From an uncultured Acidobacteriota bacterium (GTDB taxonomy: Bacteria; Acidobacteriota; Thermoanaerobaculia; Multivoradales; UBA5704), in contig CAVYRF010000002.1 in NCBI GenBank assembly GCA_963770895.1, forward strand, positions 2,912,001 to 2,976,000: a stretch of DNA of 64,000 nucleotides. Direction: 5' to 3'. Numbering within the stretch: the first letter of the stretch is position 1; each line of letters opens with the position of its first letter. Below, piece after piece: positions 6,298 to 62,690 of the stretch. Under the pieces are notes generated by a model. That model saw only the letters and a list, made by a program, of their open reading frames with translations. It had not been told where the DNA came from and searched no databases. Position numbers and translations under genes: made by a program.

Positions 6298-9200
6298 ATG
6301 CCAGACCACGGCGGGAGGCTCGCGATCGTTGTGCGGGGGACCGAGATCGTGGGCACCGACCCGCCTCGGCTTGCCCGGCAGAAGCTGGCGCGGATCACCT
6401 TGGATTCGATGGTTCAATTCGTCGGGCTGTTGGATGCGCAGGGTACGGTGCTGGAGATCAACAAGGTGGCGCTCGACGCCGTGGGGGTCGAACTCGCCGA
6501 GGTCGAGGGGAAGCCGTTTTGGACCACCTTCTGGTGGCAGGTGTCGGATGAGATCCGGGCGATCCTGCGGGAGTCGATCGCGCGCGCGGCGCAGGGCGAG
6601 TTCGTGCGCTGGGATACGGAGATCTACGGGCGCGCTGGCGGCAAGGAGACGATCGTCATCGACGCCTCGCTTTGCCCGGTGGCGGATGACGATGGCAATG
6701 TCGTGTTCATCTGTGCCGAGGGCCGCGACATCACGGCGAAAAAGGCGCAGGAGCGGGAGATCGCCGCGAAAAACGTCGAGCTGCAGGGGCTGCTCGAGCG
6801 CATTCGCGAGCTCGACGAGATCAAGACGCAGTTCTTTGCCAACGTGAGCCACGAGCTGCGCACGCCGCTGGCGCTCATCCTCGGCCCCGCGCAGCGGCTG
6901 AGTGACGACGACGGCACGATGGATCGCGCGCAGCGGCGCGAGTCGGCGCAGGTCGTGACGCGCAACGCGCGGATGCTGCTCAAGCACGTCAACGATCTGC
7001 TCGACATGTCGAAGCTCGAGGCCGGCAAGCTGAAGATCGAGCTGCAAGACGTCGACGTCGCCGCGCTGACGCGCTTCCTGGCGTCGCATTTCGCCGTCCT
7101 GGCCGACGAGCGCGGCATCGCTCTCACGGTCGACGCCGGCGAACCCTGCCCGGCGGCCGTCGATCCCGACAAGCTGCAGCGGGTGTTCATGAACCTGCTG
7201 GCGAACGCGTTCAAGTTCACCCCTGCGGGGGGCAGCGTGCGCTGCGCGCTGCAACGCTCCGCGCACGAGCTGCGCGTCACGGTCGACGATTCCGGTCCCG
7301 GGGTCGAGCCAAGTCTCCGCAAGGCCATTTTCGAGCGCTTCCGCCAGGGCGACGGCGGCAGCAATCGCAAAGTGGGCGGCACCGGGCTCGGTCTGGCGAT
7401 CGCGAAGGAGTTCGTCGAGATGCACCAGGGCCGGATCGAGGTGACGGACTCGGACCTGGGCGGCGCTCGCTTTGAGGTCATGTTGCCGCTGCACCGCACG
7501 ACTGCCGGTGCGCTGGCAGGCGCGGCCGGGCCTGAAGCCGGTGTCGCTCGCGATGTGCTCGACGGCTTGATTGCCGAGCTGCAGCCGAGCGATCCGCCTC
7601 GCGTGACCGCGCTCGCGGCCGCGGCCGCGAGCGCGACACCGGGCGCGGGCGTCCGGCCGCGCATCCTGGTGGTGGAAGACAACGCGGATATGAACCGCTT
7701 CGTCACCCAGTGCCTGGCCGCCGACTACGAGGTGATCTCCGCCTTCGACGGCGGCGAGGGGCTGGAGATGGCGCTGCGCTTCCTCCCTGCGCTCGTCGTC
7801 TCCGACATCATGATGCCGAAGGTTAGCGGCGACGAGATGGTCGCCAGGATGCGCCAGCAGCCGGAGCTGCGGCAGACGCCGATCCTGCTGCTCTCCGCCA
7901 AGGCCGACGAGGCTTTGATGGTGAAGCTGCTTGACAGCGGCGCCCAGGACTTCATTGTGAAGCCGTTTTCCGAAAGGGATCTGGCGGTGCGCGTTCGCAA
8001 CCTTGTCCTGGCCCAGCAAGCGCGGAGCGAAACTGAGCTGCAAAAGCGGCTGCTGCATTCGCTTTTCATGCAGGCGCCGGCGCTGATCGCGGTGCTGCGT
8101 GGCCCGCAGCACCGGATCGAGCTGGCCAATCCGCCGATCTGCCAGGTTTGGGGCCACACCGAGCGCGAGGTAATGGGGCGGCCGTTTTTCGAGGTGATGG
8201 CCGAGCTGGGCGACCTGGAGTTCCCATCCCTGCTCGACAAGGTGTACCGCGAGGGCACCCCGTATGTCGGCAAGGAGACCCGCGTTACCTTCGACCGCGG
8301 CGAGGCCGGCACCGAGACGCTATTCTTGAACTTCGTCTATTCCCCGTTGCGCAACGCGGGCGGCCAGATCGACGGCATCTTTGTCATCGCGTCCGACGTT
8401 ACGGAGCAGGTGGTGGCGCGCCAGCAGGTCGACGGCCTGCGCCAGGCCGCGGAAGCCGCCAGCCGCGCCAAGGACGAGTTCCTGGCGATGCTCGGTCACG
8501 AGCTGCGCAATCCGTTGTCGCCGGTGGTGACGGCGTTGGAGCTGATGAAACTGCAAGATCCGCACGGGTCGGAGCGGGCGCGGACCATCATCGAGCGCCA
8601 GGTGCACAACCTCATCCGCCTGGTGGACGACCTTCTCGACGTGTCGCGGATCGCCCGCGGCAAGGTGGAGCTGAAGACGGAAACGGTGGAGATCGCTGAG
8701 GTGCTGGCGGAGGCCATCGAGACCGCGAGCCCGCTGGTCGAGCAGCGCGCTCACACTTTGCGCGTCGAGGTGGCGGCGAGCGGCCTGAGCGTCAACGCCG
8801 ACACGACGCGGTTGAGCCAGGTGATCTCGAACCTGCTGACGAATGCGGCGAAGTACACCCCGCCGGGAGGCGAGATCGCGGTCGCGGCGGCGCGGCTCGG
8901 CGACGAAGTCGTGCTGCGCGTTCGCGACACGGGCATCGGCATCGCGCCGGAGATTTTGCCGCACATCTTCGATCTCTTCGTGCAGGATCGCCAGACCGTC
9001 GAGCGTGCGCAGGGCGGGCTGGGCATTGGGTTGACGATCGTGCGCAATCTCGTCGAGCGGCACGGTGGCTCGGTGTCTGCGCATAGCGCCGGGCCGGGGC
9101 TAGGCAGCGAGTTCGTCGTGCGCCTGCCGGCGTCCGTCGCGACCGCCGATCCAGCCGGTGCGCTCCAGGCGCCGACGGGTCCGCCAGACGCGGTCTTGCG

Positions 9201-9573
9201 CGCGGGGGCGCCGCGCGTCCTGGTCGTCGACGACAACGAGGACGCCGCGACGACGCTCGCCCAGCTGCTCGCCCACCTGGGCCACGACACGCGGGTGGCG
9301 CACGACGCGCCTGCCGCCCTGCGAATCGCCGCGGATTTTCTGCCGGATGTCGCCGTGGTCGACATCGGTTTGCCGGTGATGGACGGCTACGAGCTGGCCG
9401 CCCATTTGCGGGAGATGCCGGGCCTCGCGGACCTCCACCTGATCGCGCTCACCGGCTATAGCCAGGAGTCGGATCGTCGCAAGTCGCAGGCGGCCGGCTT
9501 TGATCACCACCTGGTAAAGCCCGTCGGCGTCGACGCCCTGGAAGCGGCGATGAGCGCCGCCAGTCGGCGCTAG
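6298..9573 (+). CDS. Hybrid sensor kinase PAS-HisKA-HATPase-REC-PAS-HisKA-HATPase-REC
   Basis: Two H-boxes (SHELRTPL, GHELRNPL), two N/G boxes (NLLANAFKFT/GTGLGL; NLLTNAAKYT/GLGIGL), two receiver domains (VSDIMMP; VVDIGLP). Confidence 0.93.
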   Translation: MPDHGGRLAIVVRGTEIVGTDPPRLARQKLARITLDSMVQFVGLLDAQGTVLEINKVALDAVGVELAEVEGKPFWTTFWWQVSDEIRAILRESIARAAQGEFVRWDTEIYGRAGGKETIVIDASLCPVADDDGNVVFICAEGRDITAKKAQEREIAAKNVELQGLLERIRELDEIKTQFFANVSHELRTPLALILGPAQRLSDDDGTMDRAQRRESAQVVTRNARMLLKHVNDLLDMSKLEAGKLKIELQDVDVAALTRFLASHFAVLADERGIALTVDAGEPCPAAVDPDKLQRVFMNLLANAFKFTPAGGSVRCALQRSAHELRVTVDDSGPGVEPSLRKAIFERFRQGDGGSNRKVGGTGLGLAIAKEFVEMHQGRIEVTDSDLGGARFEVMLPLHRTTAGALAGAAGPEAGVARDVLDGLIAELQPSDPPRVTALAAAAASATPGAGVRPRILVVEDNADMNRFVTQCLAADYEVISAFDGGEGLEMALRFLPALVVSDIMMPKVSGDEMVARMRQQPELRQTPILLLSAKADEALMVKLLDSGAQDFIVKPFSERDLAVRVRNLVLAQQARSETELQKRLLHSLFMQAPALIAVLRGPQHRIELANPPICQVWGHTEREVMGRPFFEVMAELGDLEFPSLLDKVYREGTPYVGKETRVTFDRGEAGTETLFLNFVYSPLRNAGGQIDGIFVIASDVTEQVVARQQVDGLRQAAEAASRAKDEFLAMLGHELRNPLSPVVTALELMKLQDPHGSERARTIIERQVHNLIRLVDDLLDVSRIARGKVELKTETVEIAEVLAEAIETASPLVEQRAHTLRVEVAASGLSVNADTTRLSQVISNLLTNAAKYTPPGGEIAVAAARLGDEVVLRVRDTGIGIAPEILPHIFDLFVQDRQTVERAQGGLGIGLTIVRNLVERHGGSVSAHSAGPGLGSEFVVRLPASVATADPAGALQAPTGPPDAVLRAGAPRVLVVDDNEDAATTLAQLLAHLGHDTRVAHDAPAALRIAADFLPDVAVVDIGLPVMDGYELAAHLREMPGLADLHLIALTGYSQESDRRKSQAAGFDHHLVKPVGVDALEAAMSAASRR

Positions 9574-9733
9574 CCCGGCTCGGCCAGGTTTTGGCAAGAC
9601 GCTTCGCCGTGGGCCCCCCGGCCCGATCGCGGTCGCGCCGCAGGCGCGCCGCGGTCGGGGCAACTCGTGCGCGGGCCGAGCCGGTTTTTCCCCTAGCGCC
9701 GCCGCAGTTTTCTCAAGCGCAGCCGTCCTCGGT

Positions 9734-9742
9734 TGCTATACT
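9734..9742 (+). promoter_or_regulatory. Extended -10 promoter of small peptide gene
   Basis: TGcTATACT, followed by RBS AAGGGGG shortly before ATG 9779. Confidence 0.55.
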
Positions 9743-9778
9743 GCGATCTTCCGTTCACTTTCTTTAAGGGGGATTTCC

Positions 9779-9934
9779 ATGAAGAAGGAACTGCGTCCGC
9801 AGGCCCGGAAGATCACGATTGCCAAGGAGACTCTGCGCCGGATGGCAGAGGGCCAGCTGCGCGAGGTCGCGGGTGGCATCTTCACCGCGGGTGGCACGTC
9901 CTGCGGCCCGAACAACCCCTGCTACGTAGACTGA
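9779..9934 (+). CDS. Putative lanthipeptide/RiPP precursor with double-glycine leader (51 aa)
   Basis: Manual translation MKKELRPQARKITIAKETLRRMAEGQLREVAGG-IFTAGGTSCGPNNPCYVD*; KITIAKETL leader motif, L..VAGG cleavage motif, Ser/Thr/Cys core, strong RBS. Confidence 0.8.
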   Translation: MKKELRPQARKITIAKETLRRMAEGQLREVAGGIFTAGGTSCGPNNPCYVD

Positions 9935-9978
9935 TCGGGTAGTACGGTACCAGCCCGGCACTGCCGGGTGCAGGTACG

Positions 9979-10012
9979 ACGGCGGCGCCTCTGCGCCGCC
10001 GTTTTCCATTTT
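9979..10012 (+). terminator. Intrinsic terminator after precursor gene
   Basis: ACGGCGGCGC-ctct-GCGCCGCCGT 10-bp stem followed by TTTCCATTTT. Confidence 0.7.
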
Positions 10013-10038
10013 GCGCCCGGTTGGCGGCCTAGCTATAG

Positions 10039-10680
10039 CTAGAGCGCGCTGGCTTCCCGTCGCACGAAAGCAAGAAGCCCTTGTCTAAAAGCCTGGAAGC
10101 TGCCTGACCGGTTTCTTTCCGGGTCCATATGGACGGAAATATCGTGGGCAGCCTGGATCTTGGCGAGGCCTCCGGGGTGATAGCCCGCCTTGTTCAGAAC
10201 CCGTTCCAACGCCTCGGCTGTGCCACCGGCGATGGCGTCTGGGTCTCTGTAAGGTGCCCGCTGGCATAGACTCGCCGGAACTCCAGGATAGGCAGTGCAG
10301 AGCGCGGCGTTGTCGCCGAAGAACCAGGCTTCCAACTCTTCGATCGCCAGTCGATTGAGGACCTGTGGCAAGTTCATTTTCCCGGCTTGGGAGACCGTCA
10401 GGAGGCCGGCCTGGCCGGCTGCCGCTTCCAGATCGCTCTTCAAGCGTCGACAGTCCGCCTGGTCGCGATCGACGAGCACCACGACGCCCCAGCCCTCGGG
10501 GAGCCAGCGCCGATATCCACGCAACCTCGCGCCGAGATTTCGCAGAAGGTTGCTCTTGCCGGCGTGCTGGTAAATCTTGAAGGTGACTTCAGCACCCAGG
10601 ATGCGAGGCAGGAGCTGGTCCAAAGCTGTCTCGGCGGAAGGTTCCTCGACCAGGACCTCGAGGTGGGAGAGGGACGGCAT
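10039..10680 (-). CDS. DUF4276-like (TOPRIM-related) protein
   Basis: LEVLVEEPSAE...VVVLVDRD...EELEAWF, N.S.SF motif; coupled to the upstream ATPase. Confidence 0.75.
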   Translation of the reverse strand: MPSLSHLEVLVEEPSAETALDQLLPRILGAEVTFKIYQHAGKSNLLRNLGARLRGYRRWLPEGWGVVVLVDRDQADCRRLKSDLEAAAGQAGLLTVSQAGKMNLPQVLNRLAIEELEAWFFGDNAALCTAYPGVPASLCQRAPYRDPDAIAGGTAEALERVLNKAGYHPGGLAKIQAAHDISVHMDPERNRSGSFQAFRQGLLAFVRREASAL

Positions 10681-11897
10681 CAGTGGCCAGGCAGAGTCTG
10701 GCCTCCGCTGGCGCGGAGAGGATCGCCGACTTCAAAATGACCCTCCAGCCATAAGTCGCCCAGCGCGGCGCCCTGACTCATGAACGCTTCGATGCCCTTC
10801 ATGTCCGCCGCACGCCTGGCCTGCGTGAAGCCAGCTTCGTCGCGGAACAGCATCCACACCTCGGACGATTTCAGCGCGTTCACGAAAAACGGCGAGTGAG
10901 AGCTGACCAGGAGCTGCGAGCGACTCGTTGCCTTACGGCACTCCTCAGCCAACGCGGGCAGGAGTCGAGGGTGTAGATAGTTCTCCGGCTCTTCCAGCCC
11001 AATCAGCTGCGGCGGGTCGGGGTCGTTGAGAATGGTCAGGTAGGCCAGCATCTTGAGCGTGCCGTCCGAGACGTAGCGCGCAAGAATCGGCCGCTCGAAC
11101 GGGGTATCCTTGATCTGTAGCAGGAGACGCCCGTCGTCCATCACGTCGGCATTCACCGACTCAAGCCGAGGGACCCGCTGGGCGAGCGTCCTGAGGATCT
11201 GACTCAGCCGGTCCGGGTACTGTTCCTTCAGGTGCTGCACCACGTTCGGGAGGTTGTCGCCACTTGCAGAGAGGCGCTCCTGCGGGCCCGCTTCGGCCAG
11301 CCCACGAGCGCTATCGGCACTCAGGTAGGAGAGATACCAACCGGTGACGAACTTCCGCAAGGCGCTGACCCGCGGATGTTTGGCAAATTGGCCCAAGGTG
11401 CTGACGGCAATCGCTTCAGGCGAGACCAGGCGTTCGTCGACACGCTCTGCCTCCTGGTCCGGCTCCTCCCCGGATATCACCCGGCCAGCGCCCAGGTGAA
11501 AATCCAGGAACTTGAAGGGGGCGCCGAAGCTGCCCCGCTTCCATCGCAGCCATTCCTCGGCCACAACCGGGCCTTTGGAGCTCTCGTCAATGGCAAGGTG
11601 GTAGGTGATTTTGGGCCTGCCCGGTTCGCGGTATCCGAGCTCGATGATGATGGGGCCGTCAGTTCCGCGCGTGCGCAATTCCTTAAATCTCCCGCGCCGG
11701 TCCCAGGCTTTCCTCAATCCTTGGGTGAAGCATTCGGAGAGAAATGCAAACACATCGAACAGCGTGGACTTTCCGCTGCCGTTAGGGCCCAGAAATACCG
11801 TGAGGGGCGTCAGGTCCTTCAGCGTCAGGTCCCGGAGGGCTCGGTACCGCTCGACGCGCAATGATTCGATACGCGGCACCTGTTGCGAGTCAGCCAT
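10680..11897 (-). CDS. AAA_21/ABC-type ATPase
   Basis: Walker A GPNGSGKS, signature VSDGT, Walker [14 protein letters not shown]. Confidence 0.87.
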
Positions 11898-24716: not shown

Positions 24717-24776
24717 GCCGCTCAGGCCGCGGCGGCGGAGCGGCGCCAGGGAGGCGTGCGCTATCATGCTAGATCG

Positions 24777-25991
24777 ATGACAGCGCCACCCGTCTACACC
24801 AATGAAGAGCTGGAGCGGATGCTGGCTGACCTTGAGTCCGACCTGGTCGAGCGCAAGGAATCTTTCAAGGGTGACATCCCGGGAAAAGTTCGCGAGGCCG
24901 TCTGTGCATTTTCAAATGATCTCCCTGATCATCGGCGCCCTGGCGTCATAATAATCGGTGTTCGCGATGACGGTTCGCCGTCAGGGCTGCCCATCACGGA
25001 TGAGCTGCTGTTGCAGTTGGCGGACATGAAAACAGATGGCAACATATTGCCGCCGCCCTCGCTCACCGTTGCCAAGAAGGTCTTAAGGGGCAGCGACGTC
25101 GCCGTTGTGACAGTGCAGCCAGCGGACTCTCCGCCGGTTCGATTCAAAGGTCGTGTCTTCATTCGCATCAGCTCGCGGCGAGGCATTGCATCCCTGCAAG
25201 ATGAAAGGATCTTGAATGAGAAGCGCCGCTATGGCGACCGGCCCTTCGACGTACATGGTGTTCCAGCAGCCATCTTGACTGACCTTGATCACCGGAGATT
25301 CGAGGAGGAATATCTTCCGTCGGCCGTCGCCCGCGATGTCTTGGCTGCCAACGAGCGGACTCTTGAGCAGCGCCTTGCCGCCGCCAAGATGGTGGTTTCG
25401 GCGGACGAGCCGATACCGACGGTGCTCGGCATCCTGGTCCTGGGCACCCGCACGCGGGACTTCCTGCCAGGTGCCTATATCCAGTTCTTGCGGATAGCAG
25501 GTCGCGATCTTGCCGACCCTATCGTCGACGCTCAGCAGATCGACGGCGCGCTGACGGACCTGTTGCGGCTCATCGATACCAAGCTCTTGGCGCACAATCG
25601 AACGAGTGTGGAGATCAACCCCGATTCGCAAGAGCGCAGGCGATCGCTATATCCGCTTGCTGCGATTCAGCAGCTTGTGCGCAACGCTGTTATGCATCGG
25701 ACCTACGAGGCGACCAATGCCCCGATCCGAGTCCATTGGTATGACGATCGAATCGAGATCCTGAGCCCTGGGGGGCCTTTCGGCTCTGTTACAGTCAAGA
25801 ACTTTGGGCAGCCCGGTATCGCCGACTATCGAAACCCCAATCTGGCGGAAGCTTTGCGAGTCCTAGGGTATGTGCAGCGATTCGGTGTCGGTATTGCGAT
25901 CGCAAGAAGAGCGCTGGTAGAAAACAGCAATCCACTTCCGGAATTTGTAGTGGAGCAGTCGCATGTGGGCGTCATTCTAAGGATGTCATGA
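24777..25991 (+). CDS. Schlafen/AlbA_2 domain + HATPase_c_4 protein
   Basis: ESDLVERKES, AVCAFSN, GVIIIGVRDDG; C-terminal QLVRNAVMHR.Y, RIEILSPGG, RNPNLA, VQRFGVGI. Confidence 0.82.
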   Translation: MTAPPVYTNEELERMLADLESDLVERKESFKGDIPGKVREAVCAFSNDLPDHRRPGVIIIGVRDDGSPSGLPITDELLLQLADMKTDGNILPPPSLTVAKKVLRGSDVAVVTVQPADSPPVRFKGRVFIRISSRRGIASLQDERILNEKRRYGDRPFDVHGVPAAILTDLDHRRFEEEYLPSAVARDVLAANERTLEQRLAAAKMVVSADEPIPTVLGILVLGTRTRDFLPGAYIQFLRIAGRDLADPIVDAQQIDGALTDLLRLIDTKLLAHNRTSVEINPDSQERRRSLYPLAAIQQLVRNAVMHRTYEATNAPIRVHWYDDRIEILSPGGPFGSVTVKNFGQPGIADYRNPNLAEALRVLGYVQRFGVGIAIARRALVENSNPLPEFVVEQSHVGVILRMS

Positions 25992-39088: not shown

Positions 39089-39289
39089 ATGTCCGACTTG
39101 CTCAACACCCGACAGGCTGCCGAACGTTGCAACCTTTCCGCACGCACCCTGGAGAAGTACCGCGTCGTGGGCGGTGGGCCGCACTTCATCCGCCTGGGAA
39201 GGGCGGTCCGCTACCAGCTCGCAGACCTCGACCATTGGATTGCAGCGGGCCGTCGGCGGACCACCTCGGATAAGCCAATTGGACATTGA
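39089..39289 (+). CDS. Excisionase/AlpA-like HTH protein
   Basis: LLNTRQAAERCNLSARTLEKYRVVGGGPHFIRLGRAVRY...DLD.W; RBS GAGGTG. Confidence 0.88.
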   Translation: MSDLLNTRQAAERCNLSARTLEKYRVVGGGPHFIRLGRAVRYQLADLDHWIAAGRRRTTSDKPIGH

Positions 39290-41097
39290 CAGTCGCGCAC
39301 CTTGCCATGGTCCCCGATCGCGCCAGCCTGGCGGCCATCGAGCGCGCTCTTGCCGCCCGGCAGAGCCGGCGAGAGGGCCGCGAGGTGCGGTTCCTCTGCC
39401 CTGCGCACGACGACCGCCACCCCTCGGCTCGCTGGCATGGCGACAAGCACACCTGGTACTGCGACGCTTGCAGGAATGGAGGCGGCTGGCGGGACCTTGC
39501 CGGCCGCCTCGGTATCGAGCCGCAGGACGCCCTTCCGCCGGACGCTGAGATCGAAGCGGTCTACGACTACAGGGACGGTGACGGCCGCCTGTGCTTTCAG
39601 GTCCTGCGCAAGCGGGGCAAGACCTTCGCCTGCCGCCGGCCGCTTCCCGGTGGCAGCTGGGCCTGGAACCTTGCAGGCGTCGAGCGGCTCCTCTATCGCC
39701 TGCCGGAGACGCTCGTCGCCATCCGCGGCGGTGCGACGATTTATCTCGTCGAGGGTGAGAAAGACGCAGACCGCTTGGCGGTGCTGGGTCTTGCCGCCAC
39801 CACCAATCCCGGCGGCGCCGGCAAGTGGAGCCGCTCGATGAGCGACTCGCTGCGCGGCGCCCGCGTCGTGATCCTGCCTGACCACGATGCCGCTGGCCGC
39901 CACCACGCCAGGATCGTCGCGGTCAGCCTCGCAAACGTGGCTGCCGACGTTCGCATCCTGTCCTTGCCGGGTCTTCCTGAGAAGGGCGACGTATCGGATT
40001 GGATTGCCGGCCGCATGGCCGCCGGGCGTGCAGCCGACGAGCTGCGCCGCGAGCTCGAAGATCTGGCTGCCGCGGCGCCGCCCGCCGAGACGGTCGCTAA
40101 GCCTCGTTCCGTTCGTCCGTCCCGCCTACGCCGCTTGTCCGAGATCCCGCCGCAGAAGGTTGCCTTTCTCTGGTATCCCTACATCCCGTTGGGCAAGGTC
40201 ACGATCCTGGAGGGTGACCCGGGGCAGGGCAAGAGCTGGATCACCGCGGCAATCGCAGCTGCCGGCTCGCGCGGCGCTGGGCTCCCAGGGTCGTCGCCGT
40301 TTGCCCCGTTCCAGACGATCATCTTCACCGGCGAGGATGGCGTGGCGGATACGCTGCGGCCTCGCCTCGACGCCCTGGGGGCCGACTGCCAGCGCATCCT
40401 GGTCCATGACCAGGCGCTCGACCTGGCGCGCGAGGACGACCTCGCCGAGGTGGAGGAAGCGCTGTCCAGCCACCGGCCCCGGCTCGTCATCTTCGACCCA
40501 ATCGTCGCCTACCTCGGCGCCAAGACCGATTTCTACCGGGCCAACGAAGTGCGGTCCGTCCTCGCACCGCTCGCTCGTTTGGCGGATCGCTACGGATGTG
40601 CGGTCCTCGCCGTGCGCCACCTCAACAAGGCCAAGGGGACTCGCAGCATCTACGCCGGGCAAGGCAGCATCGACTTCACCGCTGCCGCCCGCTCGGTGCT
40701 CCTCGCCGGCTGTGCCCGCGACGACGCGGCCGAACACGCCATGGTTCATATCAAGCACAACCTCACTGAGCCGGGTGCGGCCCAGGCGTATGTGATCGAT
40801 GAGCACGGATTCCGCTGGGCTGGCGAGAGCGCGCTGCGGGCCAGCGATCTGCTCGCACCAGAGGCGACTGCCGATGAAATCTCGTCACTGGACGAAGCCT
40901 GCGACTTCCTACGCCGCCAGCTTGCCGACAAGTCGGTGCCGACCCAGAGGATCTGGGAGGCGGCCCGCGAAGCGGGTCTAGCCCACAACACCATACGCCG
41001 CGCCAAGCAGCGAGAAGGCATCGTCGCCGTGCGCAGGGGCTATGGGGAAGGCGGCACCTGGCACTGGACCTACGAGAAACCGGCCGAGACGACCTGA
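39286..41097 (+). CDS. Primase-helicase (Zn finger, TOPRIM, AAA_25/RepA-type helicase)
   Basis: CPAHDD...CDAC, YLVEGEKD, ILPDHDAAG, KGDVSDW, GDPGQGKS, LVIFDP, VRHLNK. Confidence 0.88.
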   Translation: MTVAHLAMVPDRASLAAIERALAARQSRREGREVRFLCPAHDDRHPSARWHGDKHTWYCDACRNGGGWRDLAGRLGIEPQDALPPDAEIEAVYDYRDGDGRLCFQVLRKRGKTFACRRPLPGGSWAWNLAGVERLLYRLPETLVAIRGGATIYLVEGEKDADRLAVLGLAATTNPGGAGKWSRSMSDSLRGARVVILPDHDAAGRHHARIVAVSLANVAADVRILSLPGLPEKGDVSDWIAGRMAAGRAADELRRELEDLAAAAPPAETVAKPRSVRPSRLRRLSEIPPQKVAFLWYPYIPLGKVTILEGDPGQGKSWITAAIAAAGSRGAGLPGSSPFAPFQTIIFTGEDGVADTLRPRLDALGADCQRILVHDQALDLAREDDLAEVEEALSSHRPRLVIFDPIVAYLGAKTDFYRANEVRSVLAPLARLADRYGCAVLAVRHLNKAKGTRSIYAGQGSIDFTAAARSVLLAGCARDDAAEHAMVHIKHNLTEPGAAQAYVIDEHGFRWAGESALRASDLLAPEATADEISSLDEACDFLRRQLADKSVPTQRIWEAAREAGLAHNTIRRAKQREGIVAVRRGYGEGGTWHWTYEKPAETT

Positions 41098-42305: not shown

Positions 42306-45300
42306 GTGCCAGCGAACCCCACAGAAGCACTGGTCGCCGATCTGCGAGCCCAGATCGAGGCCGGCGAGGTGCTGGTCATCGCCGGCGCCGGCGTCTCGGT
42401 GGCGGCGACCGCCGAGGGCACGGCGCCAGGCGGTAGCCCCGTCGCTTCGTGGAAGGGCCTGCTGGTGGATGGCATCGAGCGCTCTACGCAGGTGGGATCG
42501 CCTCCGCCTGCGGCGGGCTGGGCGGAGCGGCTCCGGGCCGACCTCGAATCGAAGGATCTTGACGACCTCCTGTCGGTGCCTGAGCGAGTGGCCAGCCGCC
42601 TGGGAGCGCCGAAGGGGGGCGAGTACCGCCGCTGGCTGCGCGAGACGGTCGGCTCCTTGCGAGCCATCGACCGATCGGTGCCGGAGGCGCTGGCCGGGCT
42701 GGGGATGACGATCGCCACCACCAACTACGACGGGCTGCTGGAGGAAGTCACGGGCCGGCCGCCGGTGACCTGGCGGGACGGTACGCGGATGGAACGGGTG
42801 GTGCGCGGCGATGAGGTGGGCATCCTGCATCTCCACGGTCATTGGCAGGACCCAGAGTCGGTGGTGCTGGGCATCCGCAGCTACGAGAAGATCCTTGGCG
42901 ATGCGCCCACCCAGGCGATGCTGAAGGCGGTGCGGTCGCTGCAGACGCTGCTTTTCATCGGCTGCGGCGCCACCCTGGAGGACCCGAACTTCGCGGCGCT
43001 GCTGGCCTGGAGCCGCGGCGTCTTCGCCGGCTCCGAATACCGCCACTTCCGGCTGTGCCGGGACAGCGAGGTGGCGGCCCTCCGTGCCCTCCATGGTCCG
43101 GAGGAGCGTCTGTTCCCGGTTCCCTACGGCCGAGAGCACAGCGATCTGGCGCCGTTCTTGCGGAGCCTGCGGGCTCCGCGGTCGCCGGTGGCGGCACCGT
43201 CCCGGCCGGCGACTGCGGCCTCCTCCGCGGGCGCCGATCCGGTGGTGCCGCGGCTGCCGCCGCCGCGCTACTGCTTCGGTCGCGAGGACGCGGTTGCGCA
43301 GGCCGTGGCCGCGGTCCTCGCCAAGCCGGCGGCGCCGCTAGCGATCCTGGGACCTCCGGGGGTAGGCAAGACGACCGTCGCGGTCACCGCACTGCACGGT
43401 CCACGGGTGGTCAAGCGCTACCGCTCGCGGCGGTTCTTCGTGCGTGCCGATGGGGTCAGCGGGCGCGACGCCCTGGTGGCGGCGGTCGCCTCGGCGATGG
43501 GGCTCGAACCCGGGGCGGGCCTTGAGCAGCGGACCTGGAGCGCGCTGGACCGCGGCGCGGCGCTGCTGGTGATCGACAACGCCGAGACCCCCTGGGATGC
43601 CGATCCGCAGGCGGTCGAAGAGCTGCTCGCACAGCTCGCGGCGGTGCCTGGCCTCGCCCTGGTCGCCACCGTCCGCGGCGACGAGCGCCCCGCGGGACCG
43701 CGATGGACCGAGCCGATCCGGCTACGCCCGCTCGACCCTGCGCCGGCGCGCAGCGCGTTTCTCGCGGTCGCGGGCGAGCGACACCGCTCCGACCCCCATC
43801 TCGACCCGCTGCTCGAAGCCGTCGAGAGGCTGCCGATCGCCATCGACCTGCTCGCCCATCAAGCCGAACCGCTGCCGGGTCTCGCCGAGCTATGGCAGCG
43901 CTGGCAGAGTGAGCGTAGCGCCGTGCTGCGCCGCGCCGGCGGCCGCACCCGCGAGGTCAGCCTTGATGCCTCGGTCGAGCTTTCGCTCCAGAGCCCACGG
44001 ATGACCCAGTGCGGCGAGCGGCTGGCAAGCCTGCTCGCCCAGCTGCCCGGCGGCATTGCCCCTGAGGATCTGGGCGCGTTGTTGGGCGGGGAGGGTGCCA
44101 CCGCAGCAGCCGAGCTACGCAGGACCGGCCTCGCGGCCCCGGACGTAGCCCGGTTGCGCCTGCTGGCTCCCATCCGCGAGGTGCTTCGCCGCCTGCGCCC
44201 GCCACAGCCCGAGGATCATCTGCGGCTGGTCGCCCACTTCCTCGAGCTCGCCCGGCTCGGAAAGCGAGTGGGGGCCGAGGGGGGCGCAGGGGTTGCGCGG
44301 AGGCTGGAGACCGAGCTGGGCAACCTGGAGGCAATCCTTGCGAGCGCCCTGGAGGCCCCCGATCCCGAGCCCGCCATAGCCGCCGCGCTGGATCTCGGCA
44401 GGTTCCAGCGCTTCACCGGACTGGGAGGCTCGGCTCTGCTGGATCAGGCCGCATCGGCAGCCGGATCGGTCCTTCTCCAGGCTCAGTGCCTCCGTGCACG
44501 GGCAGATCTAGCCCTTGCCCGCTCCGACCACGACGGCGCGCGGTCGCGCTACGAGGAGGCCCTGCCGCTCTTCCGCCGGGTGGGCGACGTGCTCGGCGAG
44601 GCCAACTGCATCCAGAGCCTCGGCGACATCGCCCAGCGGCGCTCCGACCACGACGGCGCGCGGTCGCGCTACGAGGAGGCCCTGCCGCTCTACCGCCGGG
44701 TGGGCTCCGTGCTCGGCGAGGCCAACTGCATCCAGAGCCTCGGCGACATCGCCCTGCGGCGCTCCGACCACGATGGCGCGCAGTCGCGCTACGAGGAGGC
44801 CCTGCCGCTCTACCGCCGGGTGGGCGACGTGCTCGGCGAGGCCAACTGCATCCAGAGACTCGGCGACATCGCCCTGCGGCGCTCCGACCACGATGGCGCG
44901 CAGTCGCGCTACGAGGAGGCCCTGCCGCTCTACCGCCGGGTGGGCGACGTGCTCGGCGAGGCCAACTGCATCAAGAGCCTCGGCGACATCGCCCAGCGGC
45001 GCTCCGACCACGACGGCGCGCGGTCGCGCTACGAGGAGGCCCTGCCGCTCTTCCGCCGGGTGGGCGACGTGCTCGGCGAGGCCAACTGCATCCAGAGCCT
45101 CGGCGACATCGCCCTGCGGCGCTCCGACCACGACGGCGCGCGGTCGCGCTACGAGGAGGCCCTGCCGCTCTACCGCCGGGTGGGCTCCGTGCTCGGCGAG
45201 GCCAACTGCATCCAGAGCCTCGGCGACATCGCCCTCGAGCGCTCCGACCACGACGGCGCGCGGTCGCGCTACGAGGAGGCCCTGCCGCTCTTCCGCCGGG

Positions 45301-45614
45301 TGGGCGACGTGCTCGGCGAGGCCAACTGCGTTTTCGGTCTCGGCGATGTCGCGGCTGCCATCGGAGAAGCAGGGATAGGACGTCAGCTGATCGGCCAAGC
45401 GCTTTCGCTCTACCTTGGGATCGCCGAGCCCTATTCGGTCGGTCGGGCACATCGAAGGTTGGCCGAGCTCGCCGCGGACTCGGCATCACGGCAGGAGCAC
45501 CTGGAGGCTGCCCGCCAAGCGTTGGCAGGCATCGGGCGCTTCGATCTCGTAGCGGACCTCGACAGCGATCTCGACGCCGTCGGCGCCAAACCCGAGGGGA
45601 ACGGGGGCGGCTGA
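42306..45614 (+). CDS. SIR2-like - STAND NTPase - TPR protein (NLR/Avs-like)
   Basis: IAGAGVS, TTNYD, HLHG, LFIGCG (SIR2_2); GPPGVGKT, LLVIDNAE (Walker A/B), ERLPIAI; 40-aa TPR repeats. Confidence 0.88.
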   Translation: MPANPTEALVADLRAQIEAGEVLVIAGAGVSVAATAEGTAPGGSPVASWKGLLVDGIERSTQVGSPPPAAGWAERLRADLESKDLDDLLSVPERVASRLGAPKGGEYRRWLRETVGSLRAIDRSVPEALAGLGMTIATTNYDGLLEEVTGRPPVTWRDGTRMERVVRGDEVGILHLHGHWQDPESVVLGIRSYEKILGDAPTQAMLKAVRSLQTLLFIGCGATLEDPNFAALLAWSRGVFAGSEYRHFRLCRDSEVAALRALHGPEERLFPVPYGREHSDLAPFLRSLRAPRSPVAAPSRPATAASSAGADPVVPRLPPPRYCFGREDAVAQAVAAVLAKPAAPLAILGPPGVGKTTVAVTALHGPRVVKRYRSRRFFVRADGVSGRDALVAAVASAMGLEPGAGLEQRTWSALDRGAALLVIDNAETPWDADPQAVEELLAQLAAVPGLALVATVRGDERPAGPRWTEPIRLRPLDPAPARSAFLAVAGERHRSDPHLDPLLEAVERLPIAIDLLAHQAEPLPGLAELWQRWQSERSAVLRRAGGRTREVSLDASVELSLQSPRMTQCGERLASLLAQLPGGIAPEDLGALLGGEGATAAAELRRTGLAAPDVARLRLLAPIREVLRRLRPPQPEDHLRLVAHFLELARLGKRVGAEGGAGVARRLETELGNLEAILASALEAPDPEPAIAAALDLGRFQRFTGLGGSALLDQAASAAGSVLLQAQCLRARADLALARSDHDGARSRYEEALPLFRRVGDVLGEANCIQSLGDIAQRRSDHDGARSRYEEALPLYRRVGSVLGEANCIQSLGDIALRRSDHDGAQSRYEEALPLYRRVGDVLGEANCIQRLGDIALRRSDHDGAQSRYEEALPLYRRVGDVLGEANCIKSLGDIAQRRSDHDGARSRYEEALPLFRRVGDVLGEANCIQSLGDIALRRSDHDGARSRYEEALPLYRRVGSVLGEANCIQSLGDIALERSDHDGARSRYEEALPLFRRVGDVLGEANCVFGLGDVAAAIGEAGIGRQLIGQALSLYLGIAEPYSVGRAHRRLAELAADSASRQEHLEAARQALAGIGRFDLVADLDSDLDAVGAKPEGNGGG
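44520..45348 (+). repeat. Seven near-identical 120-bp tandem repeats encoding TPR units
   Basis: gctccgaccacga... recurs at 44521, 44641, 44761, 44881, 45001, 45121, 45241. Confidence 0.97.
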
Positions 45615-54329: not shown

Positions 54330-55235
54330 CTACTTGGCGGCCGCCCGGTTGCAGGTCTCCTCGCGCAGCTTCACCCAGTTGCCGTTGACGTTGACCTGAA
54401 AGACATGCAGGAAGCGGGAGGCGCTGCGCCGTGTGTAGGTGTCGCGCGCCTCGAACTGGACGCCGAAGCGGTGCCCCGACCCCTCGAAGCTCAGCTTTTC
54501 CGCGATCCAACCGGGCGTGGCCTCGGCGATGCTGCCCTCCTGGTTGTCCACCAGCACCGAGGCGATCGCCTGCGCCACCGGGTCCCAGCCCCACTGGCTG
54601 ATCGAGCTGTAGGGCACGGGGTTGGTGGCCGACTTGGGCTCCGTATAGGCGGATTGCACCCAGAAGCCGTCCAGCTGCCAGGCAAAGGCGACGGTCGCCG
54701 CGGTGGGGTGCTCGGGGCCCGGACCGTAGCTGTGGCCGGTGCAGTTCCATTCGCCGTCGAACCACTTGACGTCCGCCAGGATCTTATTGGGCACCGCCGG
54801 CTTGGGCGGCGGCGGCGGCGGCTTGGCCGGCGCCGTGGCGGTCTTGCCCTTGCCCGCATCCTTCGACTTCTTGTCCTTGCCGGACGCCGGAGGGGTGGCC
54901 GGCGCCGCCGGCGTCTCGGCCGCGGGCGTGGTCGTCGCGGTCGCGGGCGGCGTCTCGGCGGAGCCGCTGCCTGCCGCCGGCGACGCCCGATCGCTGCCGG
55001 CGCCGGCTGCCGGCGCTGCTGGCGCCGAACCGCTGCCGGCTGCCGCGCCCTGATCCTGGCCGCCCGCCGCCGGCGAGGCGCTGGCTCCCGTCGCTCCCGT
55101 CGTTGCGCCGCTGGCTGGCGCCACCGGCGCCGCCTGGGCCGCCGAGCCGTTACCGGCCTGGCCGGCCCTGGCGGCTGGCAGGGCGAGGACGGCGGCGGCG
55201 ACGACCCCGGCCGCGACGGCGAGGCGGCGGCGCAT
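54330..55235 (-). CDS. Secreted protein, Ala/Pro-rich linker and DUF1579-like beta domain
   Basis: Signal peptide MRRRLAVAAG..ARA; C-terminal WFDGEWNC.G...WQLDGFW...GWDP; ATG overlaps lanC stop (TGATG). Confidence 0.65.
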   Translation of the reverse strand: MRRRLAVAAGVVAAAVLALPAARAGQAGNGSAAQAAPVAPASGATTGATGASASPAAGGQDQGAAAGSGSAPAAPAAGAGSDRASPAAGSGSAETPPATATTTPAAETPAAPATPPASGKDKKSKDAGKGKTATAPAKPPPPPPKPAVPNKILADVKWFDGEWNCTGHSYGPGPEHPTAATVAFAWQLDGFWVQSAYTEPKSATNPVPYSSISQWGWDPVAQAIASVLVDNQEGSIAEATPGWIAEKLSFEGSGHRFGVQFEARDTYTRRSASRFLHVFQVNVNGNWVKLREETCNRAAAK

Positions 55236-56680
55236 CAACCGGTCACCAGGGGATCGGTGACGGCCGACAGCAGCATCACCCGGTCCCACGCGGGCTCGAA
55301 CGAGCAGAGGCCGCCGAGCAACGCCAGACCGATGCCGGTGGCGCCTTCGAGAAAGCCCGGCTCGTCGCGCCAGTTCGGTTCCGAGGTGGTGTCCGGCATC
55401 TCGAACGACTGGTAGCCGGCGACCCCCTTGCCGGGACGGCGATGCGCCAGCGTCCGCTCGAACCAGAAACGGCTGACTTCGCGCAGGCGGGGATTGCCGG
55501 TTTCCTGGTAGAAGCGATTGAACAGGTGGGCGAGCCCGGCCGCGCCGTGGCAGAGGCCGGCGTCGCGGACTCCCGCCTGGTCGGTCGGGCGCGCTGCGGC
55601 GTCCAGCACCATGTCGGTCGCAAACTTCTCCCAGGCTGGTTCACCGCAGGCGCGGGCGGCTACCAGCAGCGCGGCGGCGATGCCGGGATCGCCGTAGCAC
55701 CAGGCCACGCGCGAGCGCCGACTTTCCACCCCGTCCGCCAGGGCGGTGCCGAACCAGGACTCCTCGCCGGCCGGCAGGCGCTGCTGTAGCAGCCAGCTGA
55801 CGGCGCCGGCGGTCAGGTCGCGAGCCCGGCGCGCGACCACCGCGGCGCGCTCCGCCAGCCGTGCCTGCTCTTGCGGCGCCCCCGCCGCGGCCCCGGCGGC
55901 CGCCATCCGGCCGGTCGCCGCCGCGACCGCCGACAGGGTGGCGATGGCGCCCGGCACCCCGTGCGCCATACCCAGGTTGTAATAGCCGTCCTTGTAGATC
56001 TCCCGCTGCCAGTCGGGCAGCAGCTCGGGAGAGGTGTGCCAGGTCACGCCCTCGGGCTTGCGGCGGGCGGTTTCGTCCAGGCGGTCGACCAGCCGCTCGA
56101 CGCACGCCAGGGCGCTGGCGCGCGGCAAGCGCTCCAGGACGTAGACGCCAAAGCCGCTCAGCCCGCGGATCAGGTCGTAGTCACCGGTCCAGGGCGTGTG
56201 CTCAAGGAAGCTGGTCAACGCGCCGTCGATTTCGCCCAGCGGGTCGTCGCCGTCGCCGGCCTCACCGTCCGCCGCGGCATTCTGCGCCGCCGCCGCCGCC
56301 GCCGGCTCCGGGGCGGCGTCCGCCGCCTCGTCGTCGACATCGGCAAAGCGATCGCTGTACAGGTGTTGGGCGGTCCACGCCACGCCGGTGAAGCCGCCGT
56401 ACAGGTCGGGCGGCAGGGGCGTCGCGGCCAGCGCGTCGGTGGCGGAGTCCAGGAGGTTGCCGGCGCGCTCCTGGTCGGAGGCCGTCGCGCGGCCGCCGCG
56501 CGTCCGGTAGGCGTAGAACAGCGCCTGCCCCGACCTGCCGGAGGCCAGGGAGGGGTGGTCGCCTGTATCGCCCTCGTAGCGGGGCGGCACCGGCTTGACG
56601 AGCGCTTCGGCGATCTCGGCAACCGACTGCCAGCACTCTTCGGCCAACGGTCCATCCAGAATGGGTTCCCAGGTCTTCAT
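55235..56680 (-). CDS. lanC: Stand-alone lanthionine synthetase C (LanC-like cyclase)
   Basis: YDLIRGLSG, NLGMAHGVPG, AWCYGDPG, GLCHGAAG (Zn ligands Cys/Cys/His), GFLEGATGIGL. Confidence 0.9.
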   Translation of the reverse strand: MKTWEPILDGPLAEECWQSVAEIAEALVKPVPPRYEGDTGDHPSLASGRSGQALFYAYRTRGGRATASDQERAGNLLDSATDALAATPLPPDLYGGFTGVAWTAQHLYSDRFADVDDEAADAAPEPAAAAAAQNAAADGEAGDGDDPLGEIDGALTSFLEHTPWTGDYDLIRGLSGFGVYVLERLPRASALACVERLVDRLDETARRKPEGVTWHTSPELLPDWQREIYKDGYYNLGMAHGVPGAIATLSAVAAATGRMAAAGAAAGAPQEQARLAERAAVVARRARDLTAGAVSWLLQQRLPAGEESWFGTALADGVESRRSRVAWCYGDPGIAAALLVAARACGEPAWEKFATDMVLDAAARPTDQAGVRDAGLCHGAAGLAHLFNRFYQETGNPRLREVSRFWFERTLAHRRPGKGVAGYQSFEMPDTTSEPNWRDEPGFLEGATGIGLALLGGLCSFEPAWDRVMLLSAVTDPLVTG

Positions 56681-56739: not shown

Positions 56740-58263
56740 ATGAAGGCGCCCTCTTATTACGTGCCGGTCATCGCCCTCGGCGCCCTGTCGCTGCTCGCCG
56801 CGAGCGCCGCGCCTTCCACCCCCGCCGCGGCGCCGGATCTGCCGCCGCTCGCGCCGCTGCCGGCGCCGCTCGCCAGGCGGATGCCCGACCTGGTGCAGAC
56901 GGCGGAGCGCTATCGCGGCCTGTCGCTGGTGCGGCGCGTGCCGTGGGGGGTGATGTCCGAAGGCGACCTGGCCCGCGAGGTGGCCGACGACTTCCGCCAG
57001 GATCTGCCGCCGGAGCGGCTGGCCGCGGTCGAGCTGAGCCTGAAGACGTTCGGCCTGATCCCCGAGGTGATGGATCTGAAGACCTACTATCCGCGGCTGC
57101 TGACCAGCGAGATCGCGGGCTTCTACGATTCGCACCGCAAGGTGCTGGCGCTGGTCGATCACCAGGGGGGCCTGTTCGGCCAGGACGCGGTGCGTCAGTT
57201 CGGCGCCGACACGGTGCACCAGATGGAGGACGGACTGCTGGCGCACGAGCTGACCCATGCCCTGCAGGACCAGCACTTCGATCTCGACCGCCTGGACGAC
57301 CCCGACCCGATGTCGGACAGCGGCGTCGCCCACCTGGCGCTGATCGAAGGCGACGCGTCGATCGTCATGCTCGACGCCCTGGTGCAGGTGCCGATCGAAA
57401 ACGTCCCTGAAGCGCCCGCCGTGCTGGCGAAGTTCTTCGGCGCCGCGAGCGGCGACACGCCGGGGGCAGGCGGCGCCGGTCTCCCCGGCGAGGCGGAGAT
57501 GGCGGACGCGCCGCCCTGGCTGCGCGACATGCTGCTGTTCAGCTACACCCAGGGCGCCGCCTTCTGCCTCGACGTGCGGCGGCGGGGCGGCCAGAGGCTG
57601 CTCGACTACGCCTTCGGCAACGATCCGCCGCGCTCGTCGGAGCAGATCCTGCATCCCGAGAAGTGGTACGGGCACCGCGACGACCCGGTGGTGATCGTGT
57701 GGCCCGAGTTGAGCGCCGCGCTGCCCGGCTACGCCAAGGCGGCCGAAGGGCAGCTGGGCGAGGAAGGCATCCGGGTGCTGCTCAAGACCGCTCTGCACGA
57801 TGCGGCGGCGGCCGATACGGCGGCCGCCGGCTGGGGCGGCGACCGCTTTGCCGTCTACCTTGCCGCCACCGGCGGCAGCGGCGCCAGCGGCGCGGCCGGC
57901 TCTCCCGGCGCATCATCGGACGCCAAGGCAGGCGCCGCCGCCGCGGATGCCGGCACGGCGGGCGTCACCGGGCGGCTGCTGGCATGGATCACCGATTGGG
58001 ACACCGCCCAGGACGCGACGGAGTTCCAGGCCGCCGCCGGGCGGCTGGGCAGCGACTGGACCGTCGTCCGCAGCGGCGACCGGCGGGTGGCCGTGCTGCG
58101 CGGCCAGGTCCCGGCGGCGGCGCGTGCCGGCGTCCTGGCCGCCCTGGCCGGCGCCCGCGCCGAGCGGCCGCAGAACCGCGATCTGGACCTGGCCCACCTG
58201 CCGCCCGTGCCACCGCTGCCACACGTGCCACCGGCGCCGCCGCTGCCGCCGGTCAGGCGGTGA
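56740..58263 (+). CDS. Secreted zincin-like protein (HExxH)
   Basis: Signal peptide; AGFYD, LAHELTHALQDQHF, ALIEGDA, Y..G..F, PP.SSEQILHPEK, AAAGWGGD. Confidence 0.75.
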   Translation: MKAPSYYVPVIALGALSLLAASAAPSTPAAAPDLPPLAPLPAPLARRMPDLVQTAERYRGLSLVRRVPWGVMSEGDLAREVADDFRQDLPPERLAAVELSLKTFGLIPEVMDLKTYYPRLLTSEIAGFYDSHRKVLALVDHQGGLFGQDAVRQFGADTVHQMEDGLLAHELTHALQDQHFDLDRLDDPDPMSDSGVAHLALIEGDASIVMLDALVQVPIENVPEAPAVLAKFFGAASGDTPGAGGAGLPGEAEMADAPPWLRDMLLFSYTQGAAFCLDVRRRGGQRLLDYAFGNDPPRSSEQILHPEKWYGHRDDPVVIVWPELSAALPGYAKAAEGQLGEEGIRVLLKTALHDAAAADTAAAGWGGDRFAVYLAATGGSGASGAAGSPGASSDAKAGAAAADAGTAGVTGRLLAWITDWDTAQDATEFQAAAGRLGSDWTVVRSGDRRVAVLRGQVPAAARAGVLAALAGARAERPQNRDLDLAHLPPVPPLPHVPPAPPLPPVRR

Positions 58264-62562: not shown

Positions 62563-62690
62563 GGTGGAGCGCCGGGCAGGGGCTGGCGGCAGCCGTCGCC
62601 GCAGTGGCGGCGACGGCATCGGCCGTGCGGCGGCGGCGCGGCACGCGGTGCTGCCGTGCCGCTTTGCGCACCCTGGTAGAGTAAAGTCGA

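Follow-up and report, generated by a model that had tools for sequence, protein, structure and literature searches.

What does a reading frame of 51 codons encode when it stands amongst unrelated genes, with no modification gene at its side? The question is raised by positions 9734–10013 of the window analysed here, meaning the whole 64,000 nt stretch at positions 2,912,001 to 2,976,000 (forward strand) of contig CAVYRF010000002.1, from an uncultured Acidobacteriota bacterium (assembly GCA_963770895.1). A preliminary description, made from the letters of this stretch, had read the open reading frame (ORF) as an orphan lanthipeptide-type precursor with a double-glycine leader, expressed as its own transcription unit and modified and exported in trans. 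On following this up, the small gene most likely encodes a lanthipeptide precursor, one of about 98 that are scattered through a soil acidobacterial genome with one complete set of modifying enzymes. More specifically, and with a probability of roughly 0.7, the product would be a genuine class I lanthipeptide precursor (LanA) encoded far from its enzymes, with leader-guided modification by LanB and LanC, and with C39 cleavage and export in trans. The preliminary interpretation is partly supported, in that the leader type, the enzymes elsewhere in the genome and same-leader clusters in related genomes speak for it, whilst the word 'orphan' calls for correction and the promoter match is uncorroborated. 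The elements of the locus are the following.

9575–9689, + strand: terminator-like hairpin followed by UUUUU, directly 3′ of the stop codon of the upstream kinase gene (the hairpin itself spans 9575–9684).
9734–9742, + strand: candidate promoter TGCTATACT, an extended −10-like match, with the −35 hexamer absent.
9767–9773, + strand: Shine–Dalgarno (SD) sequence AAGGGGG, 5 nt before the ATG.
9779–9934, + strand: predicted precursor ORF of 51 amino acids, translation MKKELRPQARKITIAKETLRRMAEGQLREVAGGIFTAGGTSCGPNNPCYVD.
9779–9877, + strand: predicted leader peptide MKKELRPQARKITIAKETLRRMAEGQLREVAGG, residues 1–33, with a Gly-Gly end.
9878–9934, + strand: predicted core peptide IFTAGGTSCGPNNPCYVD, residues 34–51 plus the stop codon.
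9978–10013, + strand: intrinsic-terminator-like hairpin with a T-rich tail (the hairpin itself spans 9978–10003).

The ORF, the ribosome-binding site AAGGGGG and the terminator-like hairpin of the preliminary description are all present between 9734 and 10013. Within a window of 70.4 % G+C, the G+C content at third codon positions (GC3) is 0.83 for the 51-residue ORF and 0.56–0.75 for the four ORFs that overlap it; this excess, together with membership of a 98-member family, argues that the frame is more than a chance occurrence. The downstream hairpin (9978–10003) has 11 pairs, 9 of them G–C, and a loop of 4, and bases 9935–10015 fold at −43.6 kcal/mol (z −3.56), a value equalled by 0 of 200 shuffled sequences. 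For the upstream hairpin (9575–9684) the minimum free energy is −73.9 kcal/mol (z −2.20), equalled by 4 of 200 shuffles. With one terminator-like hairpin on either side, the ORF is bracketed and set apart from the upstream kinase gene. Conserved homologues, the lack of which the preliminary description would have held against its own reading, exist in metagenomes: one (P0004), at 96 % identity, differs by two leader substitutions and has the same core, and another (P0005) is 63 % identical, with the core VATAGGTSCVQSCYSH, in which the TAGGTSC motif and the second Cys-Tyr are kept. The unchanged core of the former and the retained motif of the latter argue for purifying selection on the core. 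A metagenome scan for the DNA context of these two homologues returned only one distant locus, at 35 % identity. Given its SD sequence, coding-type codon usage, flanking terminator-like hairpins and conserved homologues, the ORF is judged to be genuine.

With regard to what the frame encodes, the sole NCBIfam match of the peptide, and the only named family that it matches, is NF038153 (lant_leader_L1a, class I lanthipeptide), at 19.9 bits and an E-value of 5.9e-4, with peptide residues 9–33 lying on profile positions 8–32 of 32; a Pfam search of the peptide returned no match. The leader end, Gly32-Gly33, aligns with the GG column of the family described below, every conserved leader position is retained, and hydrophobic residues occur at −4 (V), −7 (L), −12 (M) and −15 (L), the spacing by which double-glycine leaders are recognised. 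The preliminary description had likened the leader to those of pinensin-type class I lanthipeptides. Its count of 2 Thr, 1 Ser and 2 Cys in the core agrees with the translation (Thr36, Thr40, Ser41, Cys42 and Cys48). Its assignment of the leader to a class I lanthipeptide type with a double-glycine end is likewise upheld, by the NF038153 match, by the family consensus and by passages of Walker et al. (2020, PMC7268733), in which the Bacteroidetes are described as having class I precursors whose leader shows an LxLxKx5L motif and often ends in Gly-Gly, with a C39 protease in the cluster.

The genome searched (G000; 8.16 Mb in 3 contigs, Thermoanaerobaculia) contains many such leaders. NF038153 returned 43 matches at E ≤ 10, three of which lie above its curated cut-off (28.5, 28.3 and 27.5 bits), and 0 of 14 control genomes had a match above that cut-off. 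A six-frame leader search, of the kind proposed in the preliminary description, located 57 positions by regular expression; a hidden Markov model (HMM) built from 42 of these, and run on all six-frame segments of the genome, then gathered 98 small ORFs at E ≤ 0.05, with an empty gap from 0.019 to 0.61 and 118 matches at E ≤ 10. The word 'orphan' therefore understates the case, as the window peptide is one of 98 dispersed paralogues. These have an ATG at the aligned start in 90 of 98 cases, lengths of 42–75 residues and a mean GC3 of 0.84, and a strong SD sequence precedes 86 of the 98 versus 4.0 % of 5000 random ATGs. Their leaders follow the consensus MKKxxKKLxLxRETLRxL....LxxAAGG, in which −1 and −2 are Gly or Ala and −4, −7, −12 and −15 are hydrophobic; within LxLx(R/K)ETLxxL, Leu occupies its three positions in 76, 85 and 91 of the 98 members, and the leaders end in GG (54), AG (19) or GA (8). 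NF038153 itself matches 8 of 21 aligned members at E ≤ 0.01.

Cores range from 12 to 48 residues (median 24) and are composed of 16.3 % Cys, 15.3 % Thr and 8.4 % Ser; Cys is found in 96 of the 98, and Ser plus Thr equal or exceed Cys in 97. Mean pairwise identity of the leaders is 41 %, the cores are hypervariable, only 2 pairs reach at least 70 % identity overall, and the closest paralogue of the window peptide is 44.7 % identical over 38 residues. The family copies are, on these comparisons, judged to be old and diverse. As many as 91 of the 98 lie more than 10 kb from any Pfam match to LanB, LanC or C39; no member is within 10 kb of LanB, and six are within 10 kb of LanC. Beyond this genome, public data contain a very large number of family members: from a library of 1.84 billion, the leader profile matches 8485 cluster representatives with an E-value of 0.001 or lower, and 35 at 1e-10.

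Some individual members merit separate mention. Those at C2:3876774 and C2:4747628, which are 88 % identical, form the only near-identical pair lying far apart in G000; their cores differ at one residue and their upstream DNA is similar, which suggests a recent segmental duplication. The members C1:1579906, C1:1568272, C1:1011293 and C2:2709152 (loci L057, L058 and L059) each have a stand-alone LanC gene at a distance of 145–316 bp and no LanB in the vicinity, and two of them, C1:1579906 and C2:2709152, have cores without Cys and share a distinct RI(A/N)xETLLPL leader variant; members beside stand-alone LanCs may undergo a different, LanC-dependent chemistry. A GCGCAC ... TATA-like element recurs upstream of some members (e.g. 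C2:2709152, C2:5020187, C2:1043719 and C1:1579906), with GCACAC upstream of 10 of 98 versus about 2 expected; the window peptide is without the GCGCAC ... TATA-like element.

The link of this leader to LanB comes from related genomes. Three genomes of the same order contain, at four loci in all, same-leader precursors directly beside a full-length LanB, in these arrangements.

L162: C39-ABC (ATP-binding cassette) exporter, precursor, LanC, LanB.
L159: C39-ABC exporter, six tandem precursors, LanB.
L160: LanB, two precursors, two LanCs.
L161: precursor, LanB, methyltransferase.

The LanB of G000 is 46–49 % identical to those of the four loci, and amongst loci of LanB homologues from several phyla a family precursor occurs within 4 kb in 20 of 77. 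Co-occurrence was assessed in 41 genomes, comprising G000 and 40 relatives. Amongst the matches listed, the family profile found 0 to 60 precursors per relative genome, with most same-genus genomes at 16–60, and 91 in G000. At least 3 precursors are present in 22 of the 41 genomes and 0–1 in the other 19, and 20 of the 22 precursor-rich genomes, versus 2 of the 19 precursor-poor ones, have a LanB of full-length type (PF14028 at a score of at least 209 bits). The two precursor-rich exceptions have a split LanB (G005) or a LanB broken into several frames (G024). LanM, in comparison, is found in 17 of the 22 versus 4 of the 19; the five precursor-rich genomes in which the search did not find it include G018 (100 % complete, with 32 precursors), G022 and G008. 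Precursor expansion tracks LanB better than it tracks LanM. Amongst the matches listed for 151 genomes sampled across the class, this order is the only one with expansions of at least 7 copies. As for the fragmented LanB of G024 (G024:C3:1391806-1394854), it is split over several frames, an internal TGA interrupting one of the pieces, in a genome with 24 family matches, and represents either a broken gene or an assembly error.

The preliminary description had also presupposed a LanB, a LanC and a C39 domain encoded away from the precursor; all are present, the zinc-ligand motifs of a LanC and the Cys and His motifs of a C39 exporter being aligned. PF04738 matches two genes of G000, of which only one is a full-length LanB (G000:C2:5180050-5183583; 1177 residues, with 550 bits to PF04738 and 236 bits to PF14028). 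It is adjoined by a divergent LanC of 536 residues, and the locus is set amongst genes for RNase II, chorismate synthase and an M14 peptidase. No family precursor occurs in the adjacent 1.5-kb gap or within 10 kb. The LanB–LanC–RNase II layout is kept in the 6 closest relatives examined, and family precursors are missing from all seven of the closest LanB loci (L062-L068); a precursor-free enzyme locus is thus a stable feature of the clade. The second LanB-like gene (L060:7910-10687, i.e. G000:C2:4507910-4510687; 925 residues) consists of the N-terminal, glutamylation-type domain only and sits beside a large non-ribosomal peptide synthetase gene, and was set aside as not belonging to a lanthipeptide pathway. 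There are 14 LanC-domain matches in G000, from about 13 genes, two of which are LanM, and nine C39 matches, three of them strong. The two LanM genes (G000:C2:276424 and C2:4307653, both on the − strand) each have an adjacent precursor of their own, whose AWKDP/AWRDE-type leader has no relation to that of the 98-member family. Candidate partners of the precursor within the window are the following.

55235–56680, − strand: LanC-like protein of 481 residues, candidate cyclase in trans.
58253–60568, − strand: C39-peptidase ABC exporter of LanT/PCAT type, about 771 residues from the start MPTPP, candidate leader protease and exporter.
60568–62619, − strand: HlyD-family membrane-fusion protein (HlyD_3, GAF_2; ORF bounds as listed), upstream of the exporter.

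In the window LanC, the zinc-ligand motifs HG, WCYG and CHG align to solved LanC-like proteins, including a NisC match, and this protein is the top or second G000 match of LanCs from the canonical clusters of relatives. The exporter's peptidase domain, around positions 59969–60478, matches LahT150 (PDB 6MPZ) at an E-value of 2.5e-27, with the Cys and His motifs aligned, and the protein has a complete ABC_membrane and ABC_tran architecture; over 732 residues the exporter is 58.7 % identical to a cluster LanT, compared with 38–41 % for the next G000 candidate. The HlyD-family protein is likely the periplasm-spanning partner of this exporter. Between the LanC and exporter genes, and on the strand opposite to both, lies a 507-residue ORF (56740–58263, + strand) with a GC3 of 0.91 and no Pfam match at 1e-5, for which a protein atlas gives DUF8230 as a lead (score 0.96).

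Put together, these elements suggest the following route. The precursor would be translated as 51 residues, and its leader would recruit the single full-length LanB, by which Thr36, Thr40 and/or Ser41 of the core would be glutamylated and then eliminated to dehydro residues. A LanC (the LanB-adjacent one, that of window positions 55235–56680, or both) would add Cys42 and Cys48 to these residues, so that no more than two thioether rings would form. Cleavage after Gly32-Gly33 would fall to the C39 domain of the exporter at 58253–60568, with the internal TAGG as a second possible site, and the exporter and its HlyD partner would secrete an 18-residue product. All of the roughly 98 precursors would share these few enzymes, making a prochlorosin-like library on class I enzymes. 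We infer, with good support from comparison, that modification and export take place in trans. The broader proposal, that the lineage runs a natural combinatorial class I library, with one tRNA-dependent LanB, few LanCs and one C39 exporter in stable precursor-free loci and about 100 dispersed hypervariable precursors per genome, is one to which we would give even odds.

Several observations weigh against the class I precursor reading and against parts of it. As regards expression, a sigma-70 scan of 9400–10300 gave 0 promoter-like sites and no −35 hexamer, and the TGnTAnnnT motif is upstream of 11 of 98 family members versus 14.8 % of 271 control upstream regions, and is thus not enriched; nor is a −10-like hexamer (8 of 98, versus 11.8 % of controls), and a k-mer enrichment of the 98 family upstream regions against the 271 controls yielded no family-wide promoter motif. 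With no −35 element and no family enrichment, the promoter call amounts to one consensus match. Terminator-like hairpins are found with 17 of 98 members versus 35 of 300 random 100-mers, again without enrichment. The transcription unit of its own is a prediction from sequence signals, namely the bracketing terminator-like hairpins and an uncorroborated promoter match.

As regards the peptide, its 19.9 bits fall below the NF038153 cut-off of 22 bits, and where LxLxKx5L is expected it reads I12-x-I14-x-K16-x5-M22, with conservative exchanges at three Leu positions. A core with 2 Cys is uncommon in the family (9 of 98, the commonest count being 4), and the second Gly-Gly within the core (TAGG) makes the leader cut site ambiguous. 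No orthologue was found in nine same-genus genomes, in which the best matches are 41–47 % identical and are driven by the leader.

As regards the genome, the nearest LanC is 45 kb from the window peptide, the exporter 48 kb and LanB 2.2 Mb, so that none is adjacent, contrary to the class I norm of clustering. Two genomes (G002 and G030) have LanB with only 0–1 precursors. The sampled genomes are kin, and hence the co-occurrence counts are descriptive and overstate independence. With about 13 LanC-domain genes, and six family members beside stand-alone LanCs without LanB, the acting cyclase may be any of several, and LanB may not be the only dehydratase. Lastly, for the window peptide as for every member of the family, the precursor reading is a prediction from sequence.

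Amongst other explanations, the one that survives best, although we consider it unlikely, is that of a double-glycine secreted peptide that is no lanthipeptide, cut and exported by the C39 exporter either unmodified or with a disulfide, in the manner of a class II bacteriocin or a signalling peptide. A Gly-Gly leader with the −4/−7/−12/−15 hydrophobic residues and an intact C39 exporter are all that plain secretion needs, the two core Cys residues could make one disulfide, and LanB is not near the window peptide. Plain secretion would, however, leave the association with LanB unexplained, since the same leader type stands beside LanB at four loci of relatives and at 20 of 77 LanB loci, and the expansion of the family tracks LanB; besides Cys, moreover, the cores are rich in Thr and Ser (with Ser plus Thr at least equal to Cys in 97 of 98), and the only named family match is to a lanthipeptide leader.

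Quite doubtful, too, is a precursor of a peptide made on the ribosome and modified after translation (RiPP) acted on by enzymes other than LanB, be it LanM, a stand-alone LanC paired with a dehydratase not recognised as such, or a maturase of the radical-SAM or YcaO kind. G000 does possess 2 LanM and about 13 LanC-domain genes, one family member is 3.5 kb from a LanM, six are within 10 kb of a LanC with no LanB alongside, and Gly-Gly leaders are, in the passages of PMC7268733, classical for class II. Against this, both LanM genes own an adjacent precursor with an unrelated leader, and no LanM was found in five precursor-rich genomes of 22 (amongst them the complete G018 with its 32 precursors), whilst 4 of the 19 precursor-poor ones have it. 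Radical-SAM genes (31 hits) occur within 10 kb of 4 of 98 members, compared with about 7.4 expected by chance, and the single YcaO has no member near it.

It is very improbable that the window peptide, as one copy in a large family, is decaying or has fallen silent and, though translatable, is no longer expressed or processed: the lack of an orthologue in the nine same-genus genomes searched, a Cys count amongst the lowest of the family, the uncorroborated promoter match and the adjoining candidate defence island would fit such a copy, but the frame, ATG, SD sequence and GC3 are intact, all conserved leader positions are kept, the core is unchanged in the 96 % homologue and its motif is kept in the 63 % homologue, and such conservation makes a silent relic unlikely. 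A spurious ORF is rejected by the SD sites of the family, by GC3 and by the 96 % and 63 % homologues.

Returning to the locus of the predicted class I precursor, domain searches of its neighbours bear out the earlier statement that no modification gene adjoins it. Upstream is a PAS/HisKA/receiver hybrid histidine kinase (6298–9573). Relatives of this kinase in same-genus genomes are only 44–50 % identical, in the 3 genomes of 5 that gave a match, and are probably paralogues, so that synteny of the peptide locus is uninformative. Two genes downstream (10039–11897, − strand), which converge with that of the peptide, encode a DUF4276 protein and an AAA_21 ATPase; in PADLOC these score 286 bits to HEC-01B and 539 bits to HEC-01A, a candidate defence pair. 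Succinate dehydrogenase genes come after them. Elsewhere in the window, an AAA_25 protein (39286–41097, + strand) has a match to 'RTasDnaG-like', associated with defence-associated reverse transcriptases, and a SIR2_2/AAA_22/TPR protein of 1102 residues (42306–45614, + strand) has weak ThsA- and LmuA-type PADLOC matches; together these two genes look like a defence-island-like region. A Schlafen/AlbA_2 and HATPase_c_4 protein (24756–25991, + strand) shows weak matches to models associated with prokaryotic Argonaute.

The type of peptide is itself already known, namely a class I lanthipeptide precursor with a Gly-Gly leader. What appears to be undescribed is the organisation, in which one LanB locus would serve about 100 hypervariable class I precursors dispersed through a genome. 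In the literature consulted, which was mostly open-access and without supplements, no many-precursor class I system is described, nor is this family in Thermoanaerobaculia. The natural cases of one enzyme acting on many substrates that are named in the passages of a 2025 review (PMC12328550) are of class II only (ProcM and SyncM); a 2026 paper on RiPPs of Thermoanaerobaculia (PMC13083261) deals, in the part available, with clusters of LanM and GMC oxidase. Class II systems of this type have been turned into peptide-library tools. If true, the present organisation would be the class I counterpart of prochlorosin/ProcM, and its LanB would have to tolerate an unusually wide range of substrates. 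With about 100 natural substrates, such a class I system would show LanB and LanC to be as permissive as the enzymes of class II, and would give a natural substrate set for studies of LanB/LanC tolerance and of the control of ring pattern. It would also show how much is overlooked by genome mining limited to a few genes around LanC, the approach seen in passages of PMC7268733, as the 8485 leader-profile representatives would indicate. For this organism, a large share of the repertoire of small secreted peptides would be invisible to cluster-based annotation.

Amongst known systems, the class I precursors with an LxLxKx5L/Gly-Gly leader (NF038153), a Bacteroidetes group to which pinensin belongs, share with the family of the window peptide, as far as the published passages describe them, the basic N-terminus, LxLx(K/R)ETL..L, the GG, a C39 protease-exporter, separate LanB and LanC, and a core rich in Cys, Ser and Thr. 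Their hosts, however, are Bacteroidetes, whereas here the host is a high-GC member of the Acidobacteriota, the window peptide scores below the cut-off, its gene is unclustered and there are about 98 members in one genome. The LahT/PCAT exporters (PDB 6MPZ and 4RY2) resemble the window exporter in their peptidase domain with Cys and His and in ABC_membrane and ABC_tran; here, in contrast, there is an HlyD partner and a diderm host, and the substrates are predicted from sequence. From nisin (NisA/NisB/NisC/NisT/NisP), the likeness, by domain architecture, is that of leader-guided dehydration by LanB and cyclisation by LanC. Nisin, however, has an FNLD-box leader, a subtilisin-type protease and a single operon, in place of which there is here another leader type, probable removal by C39 and dispersed genes. 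The closest parallel in layout is offered by the prochlorosins and ProcM (and SyncM) of marine picocyanobacteria, which in the passages of PMC7268733 and PMC12328550 likewise combine a conserved leader with hypervariable cores, mostly remote genes, Gly-Gly, a C39 exporter and few synthetases. Prochlorosins are of class II, with a bifunctional LanM and Nif11-type leaders, whereas the window system has a tRNA-dependent LanB with a separate LanC, an unrelated leader and a host of another phylum; that one enzyme set serves all substrates has been shown for ProcM, whilst here it is what we infer. The window system works like the prochlorosins, yet is not a member of them.

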